Shown: positions 3,341 through 21,856, counted from the stretch's first letter. The stretch is 21,856 nucleotides of DNA from Candidatus Thorarchaeota archaeon (GCA_004524445.1 SDNP01000041.1:1-21856); one strand, 5' to 3'. Translations and numbers: made by a program. Notes: a model not told the origin generated them from the letters alone.

Positions 3341-4105
3341 TTAGATTTCTTTGGGGTTGATTATTCGGTATAAATCATTCATGCAGGCTGTGAATTGACT
3401 ATCAGGATGGCGCATAGTAACAACGTACCTGCTGCCGGCCTCGATCAGTAGTGGAAGTAGAGGAATTATTGTTGCCACCTTTTCTTTGAATTTCTTCTCA
3501 ACTTCCCGTTTTATAGCATTGTCTTCATAGATACTCGGTTTCTTATTAATAACAATCTGAATTTCAGGAACCTGCAACTTCCTTGCAACCGACAGGGTAG
3601 CTGCAGTACCCAAAAGGTCCTGTTCGTCAATGCGTGCAACAACAAAGAGAAAATCCGCAGTAGCCATTGAGAGAAGCGTTTCTCTATCTAATCCAGGATG
3701 CGTGTCTATAATCAAGTAATCAAGGTTCTTTTCCTCTATCACATCGGTAAACCCATTTCGTAAGTCGCTTACCTCGTATCCTTCTCTCAGAATCCTGGTG
3801 ATTGCTGTTGCAGTCATGGAACTTGGTATGAGATACAATTTTCCGTCCTTTACTCCCATCTGACGCGACATATCAAGACAAGTATCTCCAATTTTGCATT
3901 CGCCTCGGAGATAGTCATTCAATGTGTATTTCATCTTCTTTTGACCAAGGCCAAAAATCACATGGATTCCTGGTGATGCCATGTCAGTATCCATGACGGC
4001 TACCCTTTTTCCTTCCATCGCAGCAATAGCAGCGAGATTTGCCGCGATATTCGACTTACCTGTACCTCCTCTGAAGGAGTGTATGCTAACAATATCACCT
4101 GTCAT
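3341..4105 (-). CDS. MinD/ParA family (SIMIBI) ATPase
   Basis: Deviant Walker A SFRGGTGKS, A' VMDTDMASPG, Walker B LIIDTHPG, and INK motif. The start overlaps the upstream gene by 11 nt (4095-4105). Confidence 0.92.
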   Translation of the reverse strand: MTGDIVSIHSFRGGTGKSNIAANLAAIAAMEGKRVAVMDTDMASPGIHVIFGLGQKKMKYTLNDYLRGECKIGDTCLDMSRQMGVKDGKLYLIPSSMTATAITRILREGYEVSDLRNGFTDVIEEKNLDYLIIDTHPGLDRETLLSMATADFLFVVARIDEQDLLGTAATLSVARKLQVPEIQIVINKKPSIYEDNAIKREVEKKFKEKVATIIPLLPLLIEAGSRYVVTMRHPDSQFTACMNDLYRIINPKEI

Positions 4106-5378
4106 GATTAAGACCTCGACTCTTTTGCCATTTCACATTCTCTCCAAGTTGTTTCATAACACTAATTATTCTTGTCGCTGAAATGCCCGTCTTGGTGGCG
4201 ATTTCCTTAATGGAATAGGTTCCATTGCAGTACTGCTTGATAGTATCAACCACATCGTAATCCTTCTTTGGCATCCCTATCACCTCAAGGTATGCGGAAA
4301 AGCGTTCATCCTTTTTCTTGATTACTGGGTACACATTGGTTATCCGAGCTATATCCTTGGCGATTAATTGAGCCAAGAGTTCAACCAACACCGGCCGATC
4401 CAATCCTGTTCTTTCAATAAGGTCAATGATGGTTGAATGCTTCGTAGTATTCTGTAGTACATTTCTTATTTTCGAGAGGTCTTCATCATCAATTTCTGCG
4501 AATCTTGACAATATTTCATCTATATCTTCAGGCTCATAATTCGGAATAACAATATCAGAATCAAGAAATGCAAAATGCTCTTCTTCTCTTATTGGCTCTA
4601 TTCGTTTTGCCTTCGAAACGTCTATGCTGACGACATGGTCCATAAGGGGCTTGAGTGAGTTACGTATCGACTCTATTGATGACGATTTCATAACAGTGGC
4701 AATAAGTATCAAATCTCCTACCTCTGTGACAAAGAATCTCGTATCAGGGTCTAACGACGCATGAGCTGAGAGCTCATCCGTATTGATTGTAATCTCCTTT
4801 GTTAAGTCATGCAAATCTAAGAAGGCTTCATTTTCATACGCTCTCAAATTTGAAGCTATAATAAATCCGTCTTTTGTGAGGATAGCTGTTCGAAGCGATT
4901 TGCTTGCCTTTTCCACTTCAGCCATTTTTGATTTGAGCATCCTCAGTTCGGATATTGGCAACAAAGCCGTTTTGTAGCGTCTCGCAAGTCCAGGGATTCC
5001 ATTGAATTTCTGCAATGTCGATTCCACAATCTCAGTGAAATGTAGAAAATCTCGTCGAGATACAATACTTCTTCTTAATTTCTCATAGAATTTCCCAACG
5101 AATTGCTCTGAGAGCTCATTAAGAATTGCTGCATAGATCTCTGCACTATCTTCTCTGTAAACAAGTGCGATGAAAAACACATCTCCTCTTCTTTCCCAGA
5201 CAAATTTGTTCTTCTCAAAGGACATTACTCTAATTTGCTGAGAACTGATTTTTTCTGCCATTGACCCAAGTGCAGATAGAAAGCCTGACACAAGTTCATC
5301 TAGTTTCTGTTCTCCAGTGACACTATAATGATATAGAGGAATGCCTCCTTCTTTCAGTATTACGATTTCTTTAACCAT
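4095..5378 (-). CDS. Longin + roadblock/LC7-like + tandem winged-helix protein (Asgard ESP-like, NPRL2/3-like architecture)
   Basis: aa1-125 longin pattern (IVILKEGGIPLYHY, LVSGFLSAL, FFIALV, ILNELSEQF). aa~140-250 roadblock pattern (TAILTKDGFIIASNL). aa~300-420 two wHTH-like units (TIIDLIERTGLDR..LVELLAQLI; CNGTYSIKEIATKTGIS). Confidence 0.7.
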   Translation of the reverse strand: MVKEIVILKEGGIPLYHYSVTGEQKLDELVSGFLSALGSMAEKISSQQIRVMSFEKNKFVWERRGDVFFIALVYREDSAEIYAAILNELSEQFVGKFYEKLRRSIVSRRDFLHFTEIVESTLQKFNGIPGLARRYKTALLPISELRMLKSKMAEVEKASKSLRTAILTKDGFIIASNLRAYENEAFLDLHDLTKEITINTDELSAHASLDPDTRFFVTEVGDLILIATVMKSSSIESIRNSLKPLMDHVVSIDVSKAKRIEPIREEEHFAFLDSDIVIPNYEPEDIDEILSRFAEIDDEDLSKIRNVLQNTTKHSTIIDLIERTGLDRPVLVELLAQLIAKDIARITNVYPVIKKKDERFSAYLEVIGMPKKDYDVVDTIKQYCNGTYSIKEIATKTGISATRIISVMKQLGENVKWQKSRGLNHDR

Positions 5379-5448
5379 TCGTGTCCCCTTGGCTGAACTT
5401 CGCTGACTTACAAAGGATATACTGACTTATACCTTAGTCGGTTTTTTC

Positions 5449-6360
5449 CTAGCCAACAAATACTGGGCGCCGCTGTACCTGAATTATTCTTAGAACCCAC
5501 TGAACCTGATTACCCATTTTTTTGAGCACGCCATACAGTTCTTCAATACTTGTTTCTGTCCTATTGCTAATAACAGGTAGCGGAGTTCTGCCATCACAAT
5601 ATGGCTTTGCATCGTTTAAGATTCCAAATTCTCTCCGGGGGAGACCAATGATATCAAGATATGCGTCAAAACGTTCATCTGAACTCTTTATTAGAGGGCA
5701 CATTTTGAAAATTTCTACAACTCCCCATATTGCCAGATATTCTATTATCTCTATGATTGTTTCGTGATCCAAGCCCGTTTTCACTGAAATCTCTGCAATT
5801 GGGATAGTTCCGTCAATTCTCCGCAATACCTGATTACTAGCTCTGCCAAAATCCCGGTGCAATTCATCCAAAAATCCATGAACCGTTGACACTTGTTGAT
5901 AGAGCTCTCCGTTCAACTTGGGAACAACATATGAACTAAGGTTTGAGATGACGGTAACAATCCCCTCATAATAGTCAAAGGACTTCCGAGCTTGCTGTTT
6001 GAATGCGTCGAAATCCTTCTCCTCGACAATGGACTTGGATATTTCAGCCGTGTATCTAAGAAGGAATCTATTACTCAAATCCCGCAAAATTGCTCTTAAT
6101 ACTTTGCTTGGTGCTCCAGCATCAACCAAGAATATGAAAAGCAAATCATCGCCTGCTGGCTCGTAGAGCAGCTCTGACCCTTCAAATGAGAGACTCCTCA
6201 CGGTACGTTCTCCAAACTCACTGGCAAAACTCGTAATAGCAGTTAGAAATCCAGACAATAAATCATCAACCTGCCTAGTTCCTATGGGTGAATAATGGAA
6301 GACAGGGAGTCCGCTCGTTTTCAGTACCATGAATTCCTTTATTCCTAGGCGTCCACTCAA
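5449..6360 (-). CDS. Longin + tandem winged-helix protein, paralogue of 4095-5378
   Basis: N-terminal longin pattern (MVLKTSGLPVFHY, LLSGFLTAITSFASE, LLFIFLVD). wHTH units IDGTIPIAEISVKTGLD..EYLAIWGVV and CDGRTPLPVISNRT. TTG start; the exact start is uncertain. Confidence 0.75.
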   Translation of the reverse strand: MSGRLGIKEFMVLKTSGLPVFHYSPIGTRQVDDLLSGFLTAITSFASEFGERTVRSLSFEGSELLYEPAGDDLLFIFLVDAGAPSKVLRAILRDLSNRFLLRYTAEISKSIVEEKDFDAFKQQARKSFDYYEGIVTVISNLSSYVVPKLNGELYQQVSTVHGFLDELHRDFGRASNQVLRRIDGTIPIAEISVKTGLDHETIIEIIEYLAIWGVVEIFKMCPLIKSSDERFDAYLDIIGLPRREFGILNDAKPYCDGRTPLPVISNRTETSIEELYGVLKKMGNQVQWVLRIIQVQRRPVFVG

Positions 6361-6382
6361 GTTCTCTGCATCCGGGTTTGGA

Positions 6383-6415
6383 AAACTAGATTATATGTAA
6401 TAAGCTATCTAGTTT
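6383..6415. promoter_or_regulatory. Perfect 9-bp inverted repeat enclosing an AT-rich TATA-like spacer in a divergent promoter region
   Basis: AAACTAGAT (6383-6391), 15-nt spacer TATATGTAATAAGCT, ATCTAGTTT (6407-6415), between the divergent starts at 6360 (-) and 6503 (+). Confidence 0.5.
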
Positions 6416-6502
6416 GTAGTTTCGCAAATGTCGTGAATTTCAGCAATGAGATGACTCCGAAATGGTCTTATGCTTTTCTCTCAGCAAGAAAATTGCAGGT
6501 AA

Positions 6503-8119
6503 GTGCAACTGATGTTAGAGTATAGGCATTTCCCCCTAAAGAAAGCACTCACGTATCTCATGTTTTCTCCCGTCTTCGCCTATTTCATCTATTCGATCCA
6601 AGAAATTCTATTCAATCAAACATCCCCTGTCCCTTCGCTGGACTTGTCCTATGTTCTTTTCTTGGGAGTGATTGTTGCTTTCGTATCATTGGCTATTGCT
6701 GGATATGTCGTTGATAGAATACATAGAACATACACCATTTGTTTTGCCACTGCAGTGATCCCTATTACATTGGATCTTGTTCGTACTTTTCTACCAATTG
6801 TTTCTTCATCGCAAGCCTATATTGAGGTGCTATTTGTTTTCGCTCTATTTTCCGGGTTTTCTGTGGTAACGCTTTCCTGGTCGATAATGGTCAATAGAAC
6901 AGTTGTACTGAGATATAGAGGGAGACTGTCAGCATCTATGTTCGCACTCGCACTCGTTTTATTCTTGATCTTCAATATTGTGGGTTCGACTCCTGTCGGT
7001 GCAACGCCATTCGCAATTGAGTTGGCACATATCTTGGTTCCCGTCGGGCTTCTCATTTCCTTGCTGATACGACCATGGAGATGGCAGTCCTATCCTCTGG
7101 CTGTCAGTGGCAATCCAACCAAGTATTTCATTCCCATGACCCTGCTGCTCCTTGCACACTTCCTGTGGTATCATGGAACTATGATGTCAATCCAAGGGCT
7201 ATTTAGGACAGTAGGTGAAGCCAATTTCTCATCGTTGGGTGAATATGCCGGATGGACACAGTATGAGCCACTCATTGTAGCCATCGGAGCTATGGGGGCA
7301 GGGTTTCTAGCGGATCTCCGTGGAAGAAAACCTGCATTCAATACTCTCGTTCTCTCGATGGGACTTCTGGCCATATTTTCAAGTACCATGTATGGTATCG
7401 AGTCTTCAGGAGGTCAAGGTTCTGCCAGAGTTATACTACAGGCATGGCCTCTCCTGCTGATGGAGAGATTGGTAGAGGGCTTCTTACTGGGTCTTTGCAT
7501 TTTTCTTATTTGGGCTGAACTTGGTTCTCCAAAGACCAAGGGCTTGAGATTGTCATCAATACTGGTAGTTTTATCGGGATATTTCGCACTATTCTGGGTG
7601 ATTCAGGCAGGTCCCTTCGCCCTTCAGTTACCCGGCTTAGTAGCATTGGTTGGGCCTCAAATTGCGGTACTTCTGACACTAGTTGCACTTTACACTACTT
7701 CTGATGCGCCTGAACTGAGAGGGAGAGAGGTGGAAATGGAAGAACTCAGTCTAGACTTCAGCGAGAAAATGGTTAAGGAAACTGTTGAAGCGTTTGTTGA
7801 AGATGAGGATCTTGATTCGATAAGGAGTCAAGTCGACCTCATCGATGTAGGAACAGAAATTTCTGACCAAGATTTCAGAGAAATCATTGGGGAAGATTTC
7901 AACGATATTGTATCTTTTAGAGACATAAAGGGAATAGGCCCTGCCATGGAAAAGAAGTTGAGAGCTGCGGGTTATACATCAGCTGCACAGCTTGCTGGAG
8001 AGATACCGTCTAGGCTCTCTAGACGGGTTGAGGGTATTGGCGAAGAAAGAGCAGAAAAGATACTAGAAGCCGCTAGAGAAGTTGTGAAGTCTGCCCTAAA
8101 AAACAATGGTGAGAAGTAG
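6503..8119 (+). CDS. MFS-fold polytopic membrane protein with acidic linker and C-terminal helix-hairpin-helix domain
   Basis: About 12 hydrophobic segments. MFS motif-A-like GYVVDRIHR (~6701) and GFLADLRGRK (~7301), plus RYRGRL. The C-terminus has two HhH motifs (IKGIGPAMEKKLRAAGY; VEGIGEERAEKILEAARE). Start is GTG 6503 or ATG 6512. Confidence 0.8.
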   Translation: MQLMLEYRHFPLKKALTYLMFSPVFAYFIYSIQEILFNQTSPVPSLDLSYVLFLGVIVAFVSLAIAGYVVDRIHRTYTICFATAVIPITLDLVRTFLPIVSSSQAYIEVLFVFALFSGFSVVTLSWSIMVNRTVVLRYRGRLSASMFALALVLFLIFNIVGSTPVGATPFAIELAHILVPVGLLISLLIRPWRWQSYPLAVSGNPTKYFIPMTLLLLAHFLWYHGTMMSIQGLFRTVGEANFSSLGEYAGWTQYEPLIVAIGAMGAGFLADLRGRKPAFNTLVLSMGLLAIFSSTMYGIESSGGQGSARVILQAWPLLLMERLVEGFLLGLCIFLIWAELGSPKTKGLRLSSILVVLSGYFALFWVIQAGPFALQLPGLVALVGPQIAVLLTLVALYTTSDAPELRGREVEMEELSLDFSEKMVKETVEAFVEDEDLDSIRSQVDLIDVGTEISDQDFREIIGEDFNDIVSFRDIKGIGPAMEKKLRAAGYTSAAQLAGEIPSRLSRRVEGIGEERAEKILEAAREVVKSALKNNGEK

Positions 8120-8189: not shown

Positions 8190-9119
8190 TCAGTCTTCGT
8201 TTTTTGTCTTGAAAGGATAATAAGCCAGACCGGTTCCACCTAGCAAATCTATGGGCTTTAATTCATTACCGCAAACTGCACAATCTGCTTTTATTCTGGG
8301 CTCATCAGAAGCAGAGTGACAAGCCATACAAAGCAGTTCAACATCTGATACTGCTAATTCTGACACGTTCACTGATTTCTGACATTTCTGGCACGCTATT
8401 TTTGCCAAATCGTCTGGGATGACAGCCTGAAATTGGCCATGGCAGTGTGGGCAAAATAAGGTGTATACTTTGTGAATATCATCTGAACTGCATGAGGGGC
8501 AAACCAAATCGATTAGTATTTCCGAGCTACCGCATTGCTGACACTGTACCTTTCTTCCAAATGTCTTGGCGACCAAGACGCCCTCCTGCTCAAGGTCCTC
8601 TAATGTCCTGATTATTTCCTCCCGTGATTCTCCCAGATATTGGGATGCAATAGGATATTTGGCGACCCCCGAGAGAATATGTTGGGGCTTTATTGCATCC
8701 ACACGTTCTTGATACATATCCTCCAACATGTTTTTTATGGCTGGATTCTTAAGAAGGCTTTCTCCAGTCTTTTTGTCAAGTAAGTCCTCCAACCCTTCAA
8801 ATGCTTTCTTGATTTCCTTATCCCATTCTCGAGATGAGAAATTTATTCTGGGCACAAGTCGCAATAGATTCCTTTCTACCGCGCCTTGATCCTCATCCTC
8901 ATCTAAAAGCACAGCTATGCAATTTGGCTCTTCCATGAAAGAAATGAACAGCCCTCTCTTCAGCTTAGTATATCCAACATCGGCTTTCTGTTTGACACCA
9001 TGGCTCATGAATATAGTAAGGGCTTCCTCACTGGATAGGTCTGCATCAGGAGGGTAAGTACGTCCAACGAGCGGTCCCAGCTTGTCGTCCCACCAAATAG
9101 CGTACATGGCTTTTGGCAT
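8190..9119 (-). CDS. uDENN/longin-like domain fused to a TackOD1-like wHTH + multi-Zn-ribbon domain
   Basis: ATG 9119 has a GGTGA RBS and is preferred over 9176. N-terminus AMYAIWWDDKLGPLVGRTYP fits the uDENN/NPRL2-type 'FD...GP....yP' pattern. C-terminus YP...LEDLEQEGVL is followed by six CxxC pairs (CQQC, CPSC, CPHC, CQKC, CMAC, CAVC). Confidence 0.7.
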   Translation of the reverse strand: MPKAMYAIWWDDKLGPLVGRTYPPDADLSSEEALTIFMSHGVKQKADVGYTKLKRGLFISFMEEPNCIAVLLDEDEDQGAVERNLLRLVPRINFSSREWDKEIKKAFEGLEDLLDKKTGESLLKNPAIKNMLEDMYQERVDAIKPQHILSGVAKYPIASQYLGESREEIIRTLEDLEQEGVLVAKTFGRKVQCQQCGSSEILIDLVCPSCSSDDIHKVYTLFCPHCHGQFQAVIPDDLAKIACQKCQKSVNVSELAVSDVELLCMACHSASDEPRIKADCAVCGNELKPIDLLGGTGLAYYPFKTKNED

Positions 9120-9259
9120 AATATTCACCAATATCCTTGAGCTGGAATGAATCATTGAGATATTACTTAATAGCATATCCTAGATGAACCAGATTCTCCT
9201 TTGCAGGTCAGGGAACTGCATGGATGAATTATGTTAGTATGGTTCATTCGTAGGAATAC

Positions 9260-11094: not shown

Positions 11095-11610
11095 TCACTC
11101 TCTCTGCCCAAGAATCTTTAGCACTTGCGCAGGGACTTTGTTCCTGTTTCCCTTAGTTAGAGTGATCACTTCAGTATCGTTTCTACTTTTTAGTGAATCC
11201 AAGAAGGTATGTTTCCTGTTTTGAATTGTAGCTATGACGATCCCTTCGTTCAAGCATTTGAGAACTTCATCTCTGAACAATGACGATTTCATTTCCATAG
11301 ATGCTATTTCGTCAATGATTATTAGCTTGCCTTGCTTTCTTGCTTCTTTGAGAGAAGGAATGGCAACATTTTCAATATCATCTACATTGACTCGGTATTT
11401 CCCAACTTGAGGACCCGTCTTTCTATTCACATGTGCTAAGACTCCACGCGCCCCATCTAGAGTTATTATCTCGAAACCTTTTCTTTTACCATGCTCACGT
11501 ATTTCACGTGACACGAATCCGCCAACCCTCTGGTTGCCAATACTCTGGATAATTTTCTCTATCGCTGTCGACTTCCCTATTCCTGGTCTTCCTGTTAGTA
11601 GTATATGCAT
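11095..11610 (-). CDS. Nucleoside-triphosphatase, THEP1/NTPase_1 family
   Basis: ILLTGRPGIGKST, GGFVSREIREHGKRKGF, VGKYRV, IIIDEIASME. ATG 11610 is preferred. Its stop abuts the convergent gene's stop with a zero-nt gap. Confidence 0.93.
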   Translation of the reverse strand: MHILLTGRPGIGKSTAIEKIIQSIGNQRVGGFVSREIREHGKRKGFEIITLDGARGVLAHVNRKTGPQVGKYRVNVDDIENVAIPSLKEARKQGKLIIIDEIASMEMKSSLFRDEVLKCLNEGIVIATIQNRKHTFLDSLKSRNDTEVITLTKGNRNKVPAQVLKILGQRE

Positions 11611-11693
11611 CACGTAACCCTCTGTAATCATGAAATAACGCAGACCCCGTTGTTACCTATATTGGAAGCTGTTCATTGTGGGCTAGAGAAACA

Positions 11694-18294: not shown

Positions 18295-18339
18295 CAACAT
18301 CTGGTATGCTCCTCATCCATGTTGGCGGGGGATGACATT

Positions 18340-21300
18340 ATGAAGAAGATAATTACAACTACAATCATTGCTCTGATGCTGATTGGATTTATTTCCACAG
18401 GTTTCTTTGTTTCAGCTCAAGATCCAGAAGACCCATTCGTCTATGTCGGCTGGGATGTTGAAAACAAGACAGAGGAACTCGGCCATACAGAACAGAGCTC
18501 ACAATGGCTTTTCGGGCCACAACCAACAATCATAATCAGTTATGAGGAAAACGGGACAAGCATAACCGAGAACAACTACAGAGTTGAAGTGGGTACAGAG
18601 ATTCTAATCAATATCACGGTGCCCAAGTCATTTCTCGGTGAGGGGAATATCTTGGACACCCTCAAATTCTGGGGTTCTACAGAAACTCCCGGTGAGAAAG
18701 CAGTTTTTGCTCTCGGTTATAACGCCACCAGCGATACTTGGGAAGCCCCATATGCGGCGAGATTTGAACTGGGTTCTGATACCCCCTCCGAAGCAGGATT
18801 TATCGAGTTCATCGAGCCTGATTCCAGCTATTCTAATTCAACTGCGTTCTACAGAGTAATATTTGCCGTGAATTTTACCCGAACTGCCTTAGAAGGCATA
18901 TATTGGACGGGCATGCATACCATTGATCAGCTGGGTCGACCAGTATCACCTTCTTGGCTTTCCCGTTTGCAGTCTGGAGGATTTGCAACACCCCCGATCG
19001 GCCTGAGTGTAAAGGTCAACCCAGCGGATTTCTTCTTACCCAAATATTACTATGGTGAGATTACCAATCGCGAGGGAGAGATTATTCACTATGTTGACGA
19101 CAATGATACTTTTATTGTACGCCTGCTTTCGCACTATGAATTTGGGGATGTGATGATTCCATTTGCCTATTTGGATTTGAACAGCTCTTACTTCCAGGAG
19201 ATTAACTACACTCAACCTGTTAACTGGCCAGATTCCATGTATAATCCGGATGCACCAATGGAGAACGTGGCACTTAACGTGTCTCCTACAATGTTCTTAG
19301 TACACAACTCTACACATACAGTCGTAGAGGCAGGATACCCAAGCATTGAGTTCTACTGGGCGGAGATTACGGAAGGAATTGGCGCGTGGTTGCTCAACTA
19401 CACTATGACGCGTAATTCTACCATTGACCTAAGTAGATACTATGTAGCAAACTCTACCTATACAAATGAGTTCAATCAAGGTCGAGGGATCCGCTGGGGT
19501 GGATACTTCACAAACAACACGGATATGCATTGGCATCCGTTCAAGACAGGCGCCATAATTGACCCAAGTGAAATCCTATACTTCGCTCAGGTTGAAGATA
19601 TCAACGGAGAGCAACTCTATCCTCGCCCTGAAATAACTGGAAAACAGACCATGAAGCTCTCATACAAGGAAAGCTTCATCGAAGCATTTCTGTTTGATAA
19701 CGAAGGGAACCTTGCCAATAAGGGTGAACAAGGAGAGTACTTGAACCTAACCATGTTCATCCATCGACCCCTAGAGCTAATCAATGGTTCGTCTATCTAT
19801 GAGTGGCAAGACAATACGTGGCAGGTGACCGAAGAACTTGTCAACGGATCAATCCAGTTCTCAGGCAGTGGCTATGGCGAGAATGAAACGCACTACTGGA
19901 ACTACGCGGCATGGTATAATGTCACTCTTGATTTTGAAACTGGTTCTCCGAAGGTCTGGTCATTATATGCAAAGAAGACATACCTACGAGGAACTGGGGA
20001 AGCTGTGGGAAAAACCGAAACGCAAATTGCGGCATGGTTAACAGTCCATGACTTTAGCATCGAATTAGGTGAAGATGTTTCTAAGCTATTTCTGAACATT
20101 AGTTTCAGTCCGCTTGCTCCTGATATGCTCTTTGAAAGAGCGAAGATGACGGTAGGTCAGGTTGAAAACCTAAGGATTTGGAATGGGACACATTTTGTGC
20201 TACCAACTTGGCTACCACCTGAGCAATATGCAGATTGGATTGACCAATACAAAAAGATAGATGTATCCAATCAAATCGTTTGGAGCCCTAGCCACTTCAA
20301 GCTTGGGAATGTGCAGTTATGGGTTCCTCCGGCTTGGACGGTGACGGATGACGGTGCCATCGACCTAGATGGTAACACATTCACTACAGATGACCAGTAC
20401 TATGTAAAGAGAACAGGCTATTGGAAAGACTGGGGGAATATTAGCATTGAGGGTATGCAAGTTGACATCATCTTTGAACCATCACCAGATGAGAGCGGCG
20501 ACGAGTTCTTCTCTCGTTCTTGGATGGGTGTGGTCGAGATGGTCATGGAGTTTGAAGCCAACGAAACCTTCCACTGGTATAAGGCGGAAACCTTCGAGCT
20601 TGTGTCTGAAAGTGAGATGGAGGACATCCGTGAGACAATGTGGGCTGATGAGCAGGCGAACGTGCCAAAGCCTGAGTATCAATACACGGCGTGGATGTCC
20701 AAGAACAGAACCATTGATCTGAGTCACATTCCTGAGCTTGAATCCGGAGTATGGCGAAATACCTGGTTTGCTTGGGGCACATCTCAGTTGTTCAATATCA
20801 CGACCCGTGAATCCCAACAGGAATGGGCCATATTCAGAGCAGAGTATGCTGGCATGCTGATTTTCAACGACTTGGAATCAGAGGATTCTCCTAACGCACC
20901 AGATTTCTCCTTTGAGGAAACTGGTGTCGAGTCCAATGAGGTCACTCACCTCGTTCTTATAGACAGCGTTGGTGGCCTTGAGCTCAGACGGCCATTCGAC
21001 TCTACGGCGGATCACGACAGCCGAATAGTATCTCCTGACACAGTGATTGACTTCGGAATTTCAATCTACGATGTTAATGTGACAATTTATCCGCTGAAAC
21101 GGGAGAACGCAGAAGGAATACGCAGCCCTTGGGAACTAAGGCAATCCACCGACGGTGCAATGGGCCTCAACCAGACCAATTTTGACTATGCGATTTCTAC
21201 TGCAACAATCGATGAGATGGCCTTTGACATCACATTCCAAGTTGATATGGTTGAGTATGATGCCGAGGATGAGGAAACATGGAATCACGCGGCATCGTTC

Positions 21301-21856
21301 AAAATCGACCAGATTATTGGTAACTGGTCATTGAACGAGTTTGACAACTCCGTATTGAACGGAAGGGGCCTTGCAGTAAATTACTTCGGTATCCTAGCTA
21401 CTGCAAAGAGAACCCAATACCAGGCAGGCAATCAGCCTGTGGCAGATACCAATGCGGACAGTGTCGGGGCAAATTACTACGTCTTTGGCGATGAAAACAG
21501 TCCTTTTGCAAACGTATCGATGGGCGGTCTTCCGTACACTTGGGGTGGGGATGACTTCACTACAGAATATATCTCTGGATCTTCAACTGCACCGCTCGGC
21601 GCCTTCAGTGCAATGTTCCAATCTCAATCTGGGCAGAGCATTACTAATTGGAATATTGAGGCATCCATGCTTTTCATGACCGCTGGATACGTGAACTGGG
21701 GTGGTCACGCTGTTCATGTTGACCCAGTTTTTGTATCGTACACAAGTGCTCAACAGACTCTACCTCCGACTGGGACCACTACGACCACAACAACCACAAC
21801 TACTGATACTACCACAGACACAACTGGCCCACCTGGTGACCCTATGGACCTCTATG
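18340..21856 (+). CDS. Large (>1170 aa) secreted surface glycoprotein (partial, runs off the right edge)
   Basis: Not in the ORF track because there is no stop in the window. ATG 18340 with GGGGGA upstream; signal peptide MKKIITTTIIALMLIGFISTGFFVSA|QD. The frame matches at both ends of the gene and was open wherever I read it. Acidic/aromatic beta-rich composition, many NxS/T sequons, and a Thr-rich linker at the end. Confidence 0.9.
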   Translation, partial: MKKIITTTIIALMLIGFISTGFFVSAQDPEDPFVYVGWDVENKTEELGHTEQSSQWLFGPQPTIIISYEENGTSITENNYRVEVGTEILINITVPKSFLGEGNILDTLKFWGSTETPGEKAVFALGYNATSDTWEAPYAARFELGSDTPSEAGFIEFIEPDSSYSNSTAFYRVIFAVNFTRTALEGIYWTGMHTIDQLGRPVSPSWLSRLQSGGFATPPIGLSVKVNPADFFLPKYYYGEITNREGEIIHYVDDNDTFIVRLLSHYEFGDVMIPFAYLDLNSSYFQEINYTQPVNWPDSMYNPDAPMENVALNVSPTMFLVHNSTHTVVEAGYPSIEFYWAEITEGIGAWLLNYTMTRNSTIDLSRYYVANSTYTNEFNQGRGIRWGGYFTNNTDMHWHPFKTGAIIDPSEILYFAQVEDINGEQLYPRPEITGKQTMKLSYKESFIEAFLFDNEGNLANKGEQGEYLNLTMFIHRPLELINGSSIYEWQDNTWQVTEELVNGSIQFSGSGYGENETHYWNYAAWYNVTLDFETGSPKVWSLYAKKTYLRGTGEAVGKTETQIAAWLTVHDFSIELGEDVSKLFLNISFSPLAPDMLFERAKMTVGQVENLRIWNGTHFVLPTWLPPEQYADWIDQYKKIDVSNQIVWSPSHFKLGNVQLWVPPAWTVTDDGAIDLDGNTFTTDDQYYVKRTGYWKDWGNISIEGMQVDIIFEPSPDESGDEFFSRSWMGVVEMVMEFEANETFHWYKAETFELVSESEMEDIRETMWADEQANVPKPEYQYTAWMSKNRTIDLSHIPELESGVWRNTWFAWGTSQLFNITTRESQQEWAIFRAEYAGMLIFNDLESEDSPNAPDFSFEETGVESNEVTHLVLIDSVGGLELRRPFDSTADHDSRIVSPDTVIDFGISIYDVNVTIYPLKRENAEGIRSPWELRQSTDGAMGLNQTNFDYAISTATIDEMAFDITFQVDMVEYDAEDEETWNHAASFKIDQIIGNWSLNEFDNSVLNGRGLAVNYFGILATAKRTQYQAGNQPVADTNADSVGANYYVFGDENSPFANVSMGGLPYTWGGDDFTTEYISGSSTAPLGAFSAMFQSQSGQSITNWNIEASMLFMTAGYVNWGGHAVHVDPVFVSYTSAQQTLPPTGTTTTTTTTTTDTTTDTTGPPGDPMDLY
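21769..21825 (+). repeat. Low-complexity ACN codon run encoding a Thr-rich linker
   Basis: Encodes TGTTTTTTTTTTDTTTDTT with mixed synonymous codons, so it is a protein-level repeat rather than a DNA tandem repeat. Confidence 0.8.

Follow-up and report, generated by a model that had tools for sequence, protein, structure and literature searches.

Closest described systems and the layout of the locus

NPRL2 and NPRL3 (Npr2-Npr3 in yeast; GATOR1/SEACIT) are two paralogues of unequal length that combine an N-terminal longin domain with C-terminal tandem winged helices, the longer of the two carrying an insert. An NPRL2-like family of Thorarchaeota has already been published (Liu et al., bioRxiv 10.1101/2020.10.19.343400; Nature 2021), and the preprint version makes no mention of a ParA/MinD gene beside it. 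More recently, a mostly archaeal 'ParA-wHTH system' (ConB2) was described by Li, Burroughs and Aravind (bioRxiv 10.64898/2026.10.19.760177, October 2026). ParA is coupled in this system to one or more winged helix-turn-helix (wHTH) genes, some of the wHTH proteins are fused to a profilin/longin-like domain, and the whole is predicted to intercept and coat invading DNA. The preprint gives as hallmarks a Walker A motif with arginine substituted for the second lysine (KGGxGR; the dimer-interface lysine is 'the first' in its text) and a PG motif past the sensor DxD, and also describes cases where ParA has displaced MglA beside MglB. The stretch of DNA analysed here (the window) is 21,856 nt long, comes from Candidatus Thorarchaeota archaeon (GCA_004524445.1, SDNP01000041.1:1-21856) and is part of an Asgard metagenome-assembled genome of 2.79 Mb and 90% completeness. 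Within it, two genes of NPRL2/NPRL3-like architecture, A and B, are followed by a gene for a ParA/MinD-class ATPase and are flanked by a divergent gene for a membrane protein. They represent a conserved cellular module that is neither a MinD cell-division system nor a GATOR1 homologue in the strict sense.

The genes, domains and sites of the module, with their positions in the window, are:

5449-6360, minus strand: gene A, 303 aa, TTG start; longin plus two winged helices
5941-6360, minus strand: longin domain of A (aa 1-140; AlphaFold model)
5683-5928, minus strand: winged helix 1 of A (aa 145-226)
5638-5682, minus strand: conserved linker DERF..YL..IG.P of A (aa 227-241)
5482-5637, minus strand: winged helix 2 of A (aa 242-293)
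4095-5378, minus strand: gene B, 427 aa, paralogue of A; longin, roadblock-like domain and two winged helices
5004-5378, minus strand: longin domain of B (aa 1-125)
4623-4961, minus strand: roadblock-like insert of B (aa 140-252)
4317-4532, minus strand: winged helix 1 of B
4269-4316, minus strand: DERF linker of B
4122-4268, minus strand: winged helix 2 of B
3341-4105, minus strand: ParA/MinD-class P-loop ATPase of a distinct subfamily, 254 aa
4049-4081, minus strand: invariant Walker A motif of the ATPase, HSFRGGTGKSN
4095-4105, minus strand: 11-nt overlap of the B stop with the ATPase start, read directly from the sequence
6503-8119, plus strand: divergent gene for a polytopic (HhH)2 membrane protein
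6361-6502: intergenic region between the divergent genes, from sequence reading

The ATG of the ATPase gene lies at 4105-4103 and the TGA stop of B at 4097-4095, with a Shine-Dalgarno-like GAGGT about 10 nt 5' of the ATG. The resulting 11-nt overlap is retained in 29 of 44 Thorarchaeota loci and suggests that the two genes may be translationally coupled. The TTG start of gene A is plausible because the ten residues preceding M11 are conserved among orthologues and contribute to strand 1 of the model. On the minus strand, about 30 nt upstream of this TTG, a TATA-like box (ACATATAA, 6391-6398) is a putative promoter of gene A.

Linkage of the genes across Asgard lineages

A and B are present in 73 and the ATPase in 69 of the 85 genomes of the family, in single copy and in syntenic position. 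Linkage was read in 63 Thorarchaeota loci: A, B and the ATPase are contiguous in 41 of them, A is followed by the ATPase without B in nine, insertions are seen in three, and nine are cut by contig ends. The genes belong to a syntenic block of nine in Thorarchaeota, encoding NTPase_1, a PKD protein, TackOD1, the HhH membrane protein, A, B, the ATPase, GNAT and AFOR.

Orthologues of the ATPase with 52–57% identity occur outside Thorarchaeota in families f14 (Hodarchaeota by NCBI label) and f2. Those of f14 are 52–55% identical, and a B-type gene (29–33% identity, E 7e-69) lies directly upstream of the ATPase gene in 16/16 f14 genomes in which both were found; in f2 (genome G311) a B-type gene adjoins the ATPase in the same way. 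No A-type gene is adjacent to B and the ATPase in the f14 and f2 loci. A more distant relative of 342 aa with a longin and two winged helices (P0261) is likewise followed by an overlapping ParA gene. The link between the ATPase and longin-winged-helix genes extends far past what local synteny explains, and it is both old and real.

The divergent membrane gene follows the same distribution. Its product has at least nine hydrophobic segments, an acidic linker and a C-terminal (HhH)2 domain, and the Thorarchaeota and f14 proteins share 23–29% identity. The f14 loci keep this gene in divergent orientation, and their remaining neighbours differ (a type IIG methylase/restriction-like gene, TFIIB, URO-D). 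Since it is retained beside B and the ATPase not just in Thorarchaeota but also in the remote f14, the (HhH)2 membrane protein is probably part of the module.

The conserved core consists of one longin-roadblock-winged-helix gene, the ATPase gene and the membrane gene. A single B-type gene with the ATPase, as in f14 and f2, is the ancestral-looking state, and the A/B pair is an elaboration of Thorarchaeota. An A-B heterodimer is not obligatory everywhere, because f14 and f2 have B alone and nine Thorarchaeota loci have A alone. A first-pass annotation of this DNA, made from the sequence without database searches, had proposed a synteny survey across Asgard genomes, and the expected linkage of the ATPase to longin-winged-helix genes was indeed recovered in Thorarchaeota, f14 and f2. 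The same annotation proposed that the pair is a 'proto-GATOR1-like heterodimer', and as a general description this is not supported, given the single B-type gene with ATPase in f14 and f2 and the A gene with ATPase in one Thorarchaeota genus.

Two further genes of the window can be recorded here. A TackOD1 output-domain protein is encoded at 8190-9176 on the minus strand (E 1.4e-17); it belongs to the Thorarchaeota block, is absent from the f14 loci and has a suspected longin-like N-terminus. At 18319-21855 on the plus strand there is an open-ended open reading frame of 1179 aa that has no Pfam match at E 0.001.

Folds of A and B and the ATPase subfamily

Sequence comparison identifies A and B as paralogues, with 32% identity between their N-termini (E 5.7e-22) and 31% between their C-termini (E 4.3e-19). 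The AlphaFold model of A, built from a 40-sequence alignment (pLDDT 85), has a longin domain at residues 7-139 and winged helices at 145-224 and 229-292. That of B (pLDDT 78) has a longin at 4-124, a roadblock-like domain at 142-250 and two winged helices within 283-418. The middle domain of B follows the roadblock-like order alpha-beta-beta-alpha-beta-beta-alpha and aligns weakly with the solved Thorarchaeota Roadblock structure 7f8m. In a Foldseek search of the PDB with A, NPRL2 and NPRL3 chains of GATOR1/SEAC took places 1 to 12 over the full length (E 7.5e-7 to 2.5e-4), followed by Fuzzy/Inturned, Mon1/Ccz1, sigma-adaptins, Sec22b and MglB. The best structural matches of B were tri-longin Rab guanine nucleotide exchange factor subunits and NPRL3/NPRL2, about equally. 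Rigid-body alignment of A with VIA, which ranks the longin domain alone, returned SR-alpha SRX (best, Z 13.9), VAMP7 and Sec22b, all at Z 12–14. The longin domain alone is thus generic, NPRL2 was not singled out by VIA, and the NPRL likeness of A resides in its architecture and not in that domain.

At the level of sequence families the likeness is faint. A profile of the A family run against the whole PDB ranked human NPRL2 second, but with an E value of 0.18, aligning A 165-220 (winged helix 1) with NPRL2 183-238 (...LLYYGVVTL). Neither Pfam nor NCBIfam gave an above-threshold family for A or B. Pfam NPR2 and NPR3 had no match to P0001 or P0002 at E values up to 1, and neither was among the results displayed for the 40 A-family and 38 B-family members at E 0.1, that is, the full P0001 and P0002 tables and the 25 most-matched families of each set. 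In most members of both families, TrmB/HTH_47, Fuz_longin_1, Longin or Robl_LC7 give matches that are close to threshold or fall below it. The TrmB/HTH_47 models match 37/40 and 37/38 members (best E 1.8e-10), Fuz_longin_1 or Longin matches occur in 30 and 22 of 40 members, and HTH_NPRL3 matches 4/40 A-family and 11/38 B-family members. ESM Atlas returned Asgard 'hypothetical protein' clusters alone. With regard to the GP motif and the catalytic arginine finger of NPRL2-type longins, in the longin domain of A G17 and P19 are invariant (G-x-P, before strand 2), as is R89, and R29 is nearly so; in that of B, G12 is invariant, the proline varies and an invariant arginine is lacking. The winged helices of both proteins range from net acidic to neutral, with hydrophobic or acidic third helices.

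Much of the first-pass annotation of the two proteins is borne out by these data. The open reading frames, the A/B comparison and the AlphaFold models agree with its description of two co-oriented longin plus tandem winged-helix paralogues, its 11-nt overlap between the B stop and the ATPase start was found again on direct reading, and the Foldseek check that it proposed gave, for A, the 12 NPRL2/NPRL3 matches mentioned above. The NPRL2 string that it quoted is real and coincides with the profile alignment just described. Its further suggestion, a likeness of the C-terminal tail to that of NPRL2, finds an echo in sub-threshold matches to HTH_NPRL3 (E 0.019 and 0.034) and had no further backing.

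The sequence of the third protein places it in the ParA/MinD superfamily (SIMIBI class). It is matched above their cut-offs by Pfam AAA_31, ParA and CbiA, and among proteins of solved structure the nearest in sequence is archaeal MinD-1 (1hyq, E 6.6e-15, aligned residues 6-243). The label 'MinD-type' given in the first-pass annotation therefore stands for the superfamily but not for MinD proper: the ATPase scores 83 bits against NCBIfam minD_arch (cut-off 201.75), its Walker A motif is variant, and no C-terminal amphipathic membrane helix is evident, the Thorarchaeota ATPases ending after the last core helix without a basic tail. The variant Walker A, RGGTGKS, has arginine at the dimer-interface (first) lysine, and the P-loop lysine, K17, is invariant. 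In the sensor region, D39-T-D41 and S44-P45-G46 are invariant, and the motifs HSFRGGTGKSN, DTD..SPG.H and IDTHPGL..ET, the last of which includes Walker B, are unchanged across the Thorarchaeota, f14 and Helarchaeota-labelled orthologues. The ATPase gene is the most conserved of its neighbourhood, with a median identity of 79% (range within the family, 73–96%) against 57% for AFOR, 50% for A and 44% for B.

Bacterial relatives that share the RGGTGKS and DTHPG motifs (P0399-P0463; Chloroflexi and cyanobacteria) are 40–51% identical to the ATPase and are fused to cNMP-binding domains or to HisKA and receiver domains, examples being P0404 of Anaerolineae and P0427 of Leptolyngbya. A free-standing relative is located among dCache and cNMP-binding genes. 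Because of these bacterial fusions, the RGGTGKS subfamily points to a signalling switch; no description of an RGGTGKS/DTHPG signalling NTPase family was found in the literature. One apparent fusion of this ATPase to a wHTH tail, P0398 (492 aa; L110:968-2446), was rejected: it requires TGA to be read as Trp and splits into two genes under table 11, and the tail does not resemble B-family proteins (hhalign probability 0.2%). In two other places the ATPase gene is disturbed, and assembly error may be the cause in both: the frame at L066:8314-9050 is interrupted by a frame shift at about L066:8571, and the gene at G312:C23:13704-14456 has one in-frame TGA.

The genome of the window encodes a second pairing of the same general kind:

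G000 contig C61:1320-2734 (locus L105:1320-2734): ParA plus longin-wHTH module

The ParA of this second module has the Walker A motif HSYKGGTGRTT (KGGTGR) and is 26% identical to the ATPase under study (E 9e-21). Its gene overlaps by 4 nt a gene for a 205-aa protein with a longin and a single wHTH, the longin being a homologue of the A longin (hhalign 80%, E 1.3e-5). Taken together, the two modules show that the ParA clade has been paired with longin-winged-helix proteins more than once. KGGTGR-type ParA occurs in 15 of the 85 family genomes at 46–63% identity and is missing from a genome of the same genus. The C61 pairing behaves like an accessory system, and that of A/B with their ATPase like a core gene set.

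How the module relates to described systems can now be stated. A and B share the longin and tandem winged-helix architecture of NPRL2/NPRL3, and with it the unequal length and the insert in the longer paralogue, but they lack a Pfam NPR2/NPR3 match and a linked Rag-type GTPase; the insert of B is roadblock-like, and the nucleotide-binding protein to which they are linked is an ATPase of the ParA/MinD class. With ConB2 the module has in common a ParA gene adjoining wHTH genes with a longin-like N-terminus, the PG motif (DTD..SPG) and the idea of a ParA substituting for a Ras-like GTPase beside a roadblock/longin partner. It departs from that description in its Walker A motif (RGGTGKS, not KGGxGR, with K17 invariant and arginine at the first lysine), in being core-like, syntenic and slow-evolving where ConB2 is patchy and fast-evolving, and in its tandem acidic winged helices, two paralogous partners and conserved HhH membrane gene. 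It may nonetheless have been counted already by Li, Burroughs and Aravind. A longin or roadblock partner beside a nucleotide switch is also the arrangement of MglA-MglB and Rag-Ragulator/GATOR1, and MglB and 7f8m are among the structural and sequence matches; those partners regulate small GTPases, whereas the switch here, by analogy with its class (SIMIBI/ParA), would dimerise on ATP. MinD-MinE, ParA-ParB and the archaeal MinD-like proteins share the superfamily fold and motifs, and an ATPase encoded with a dedicated partner. The module differs from MinD-MinE and ParA-ParB in that arginine replaces the signature lysine and the partner is a longin-winged-helix protein instead of MinE, MinC or ParB.

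Function of the module and alternative explanations

We consider it probable, at roughly 60%, that these genes encode a conserved ATP-switch module made up of a special ParA-class ATPase and dedicated longin-(roadblock)-winged-helix partners, probably together with the (HhH)2 membrane protein. The RGGTGKS ATPase would most likely act as an ATP-dependent dimerisation switch. A and B, as its dedicated partners, might regulate the nucleotide cycle in the manner of MglB, MinE or ParB, or might instead form an effector or adaptor platform that is recruited by the ATP-bound dimer, and the site of action would probably be the (HhH)2 membrane protein of the divergent gene, or its vicinity. From the folds, the conserved motifs and the linkage across deep Asgard lineages, all of them observed, we infer physical binding between the components, an effect on ATP turnover, a link to the membrane and an output in the cell. 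For this output, signalling or localisation is favoured over immunity, and a SIMIBI-class ATPase in the place of a Ras-like GTPase is consistent with the data.

Several observations weigh against an ATP-switch module of this kind. Adjacency inside Thorarchaeota is weak evidence, since the whole nine-gene neighbourhood is syntenic; the ATPase gene is on a separate contig in one genome (G317, locus L029), and in locus L063 an insertion of 1.2 kb separates it from B. In families f17-f19, ATPase orthologues of 48–52% identity have no longin neighbour and adjoin instead a gene for a small K-rich protein, and a 343-aa longin plus two winged-helix protein (P0269; L102:1028-3036), from a metagenome in the series that also includes locus L075 (Helarchaeota by NCBI label), adjoins no ParA. 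In f14, a type IIG restriction-modification-like gene adjoins the membrane gene, which suits a role in defence. The structure prediction for B with the ATPase speaks for the module, but weakly. A prediction with B, two ATPase chains and two ATP gave an ipSAE of 0.39 (runs, 0.38–0.45), and the best of three controls gave 0.00; at least 48% of contacts agreed between runs, and the partner pLDDT was at least 69. The ipSAE mark is reached by 58/80 solved complexes and 2/110 mismatched pairs, but at values of 0.60 or below by just 7 of the 80 solved complexes and by both mismatches.

The neighbours of the f17-f19 ATPases are proteins of 110–137 aa that are K-rich and look helical from their sequence. 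They were rejected as longin partners, having no longin Pfam match, and may represent an alternative partner of the ATPase. Depending on the contig, these loci (L075:3720-7377, L092, L094 and L095) also show a 528-aa TPR protein, the K-rich protein, the ATPase, a protein of 199–202 aa (232 aa in L093) and a CoA ligase. The P0269 gene adjoins an NTPase_1 (THEP1-like) gene, and the Thorarchaeota block also has an NTPase_1 gene (window 11095-11631); this may be a remnant of an older synteny.

The gene content might be explained differently as an anti-mobile-element system, with the ATPase, A and B as a member of the ParA-wHTH group and the membrane protein as a DNA sensor at the envelope. (HhH)2 domains bind DNA, and the PG motif past the sensor DxD of the ATPase, the restriction-modification-like gene of f14 and the ConB2-type module (KGGTGR ParA with longin-wHTH) elsewhere in the genome all fit this proposal. 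So do the mostly archaeal ParA-wHTH couplings, some with profilin-longin-like fusions, described in bioRxiv 10.64898/2026.10.19.760177, and a weak PADLOC match to PDC-M28B (E 1.4e-8), besides which PADLOC gave weak generic matches alone. We regard it as unlikely all the same. The ConB2 arginine, as we read that preprint, replaces the second Walker A lysine, whereas here the first lysine is the one replaced and K17 is invariant; an effector gene is absent, and the winged helices are acidic and show no rapid evolution. The near-universal, single-copy and syntenic occurrence of the ATPase (69/85 genomes, 73–96% identity), set against that of the KGGTGR module (15/85, 46–63%), argues against an accessory defence role.

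The architecture itself raises a different possibility, namely that A and B are a GATOR1-like GTPase-activating protein (GAP) or platform for a Rag/Arf-type small GTPase encoded elsewhere, the ATPase being unrelated or loosely related in function. NPRL2/NPRL3 are the best full-length structural matches of A, its invariant G17-x-P19 stands at the position of the GP motif in GAP longins, and Liu et al. (bioRxiv 10.1101/2020.10.19.343400) interpret the family along such lines. Small GTPases with weak Gtr1/RagA likeness are encoded in the genome, but all of them on other contigs, and the Gtr1_RagA model also matches in E. coli. We give this proposal little credence: across about 80 loci no GTPase gene is linked to the module and the ATPase gene almost always is, which argues against a Rag-directed GAP. 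Pfam NPR2/NPR3 is unmatched, the longin domain alone is generic, and the Pfam model for Iml1/DEPDC5 was silent in this 90%-complete genome, as it was in the control genomes. A and B could also be wHTH transcription factors with a longin-type sensor, controlling the divergent membrane gene and their own operon with the ATPase as an accessory. A divergent regulator/transporter layout is classical, and the TrmB/HTH_47 matches in most members (37/40 and 37/38) point the same way. This is nevertheless quite improbable, as the acidic-to-neutral winged helices, with their hydrophobic or acidic third helices, argue against DNA binding, structurally these domains come closest to the C-terminal, protein-binding domain of NPRL2/3, and a transcription-factor role would not account for the very strong conservation of the ATPase or for its translational coupling.

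An extension of the ATP-switch reading, which we put forward as a speculation with the odds well against it, is that the longin plus tandem winged-helix architecture first served as a platform for a ParA-class ATPase at a membrane protein and was later re-targeted to Rag-type GTPases. A and B would then be direct, GAP-like activators of a SIMIBI ATPase, perhaps by way of an invariant arginine, either the one in the DERF linker or the one in the roadblock domain. The importance of the system would rise sharply if such a longin-based activator proved real.

The module had been announced in the first-pass annotation as possibly undescribed, and this has to be narrowed, since the NPRL2-like family is that of Liu et al. 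and a coupling of ParA to wHTH and longin-like domains is set out in bioRxiv 10.64898/2026.10.19.760177. Apart from that preprint, no literature linking longin/NPRL2-like proteins with ParA/MinD in Asgard archaea was found. As far as the literature was searched, the new points are a specific tie that joins the NPRL2-like proteins of the published family to an ATPase of the RGGTGKS ParA class and to an HhH membrane protein, the reach of the tie between NPRL2-like protein and ATPase across two distant Asgard lineages, and the presence in one genome of a core-like module of this type together with a patchy one of ConB2 type.

Asgard NPRL2-like proteins have so far been taken as a hint of archaeal roots for amino-acid/TOR-type signalling via Rag GTPases. 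The genomic evidence from Thorarchaeota and the Hodarchaeota-labelled family points to another partner, a strongly conserved ParA-class ATPase whose subfamily is connected in bacteria to two-component and cyclic-nucleotide signalling. Since the gene link is old and real, parts that eukaryotes pair with small GTPases probably serve a different nucleotide switch here. The focus at the bench shifts accordingly from small GTPases to the ATPase, with a three- or four-protein system available for reconstitution, and the module bears on how longin/roadblock platforms gained control of nucleotide switches before eukaryotes.

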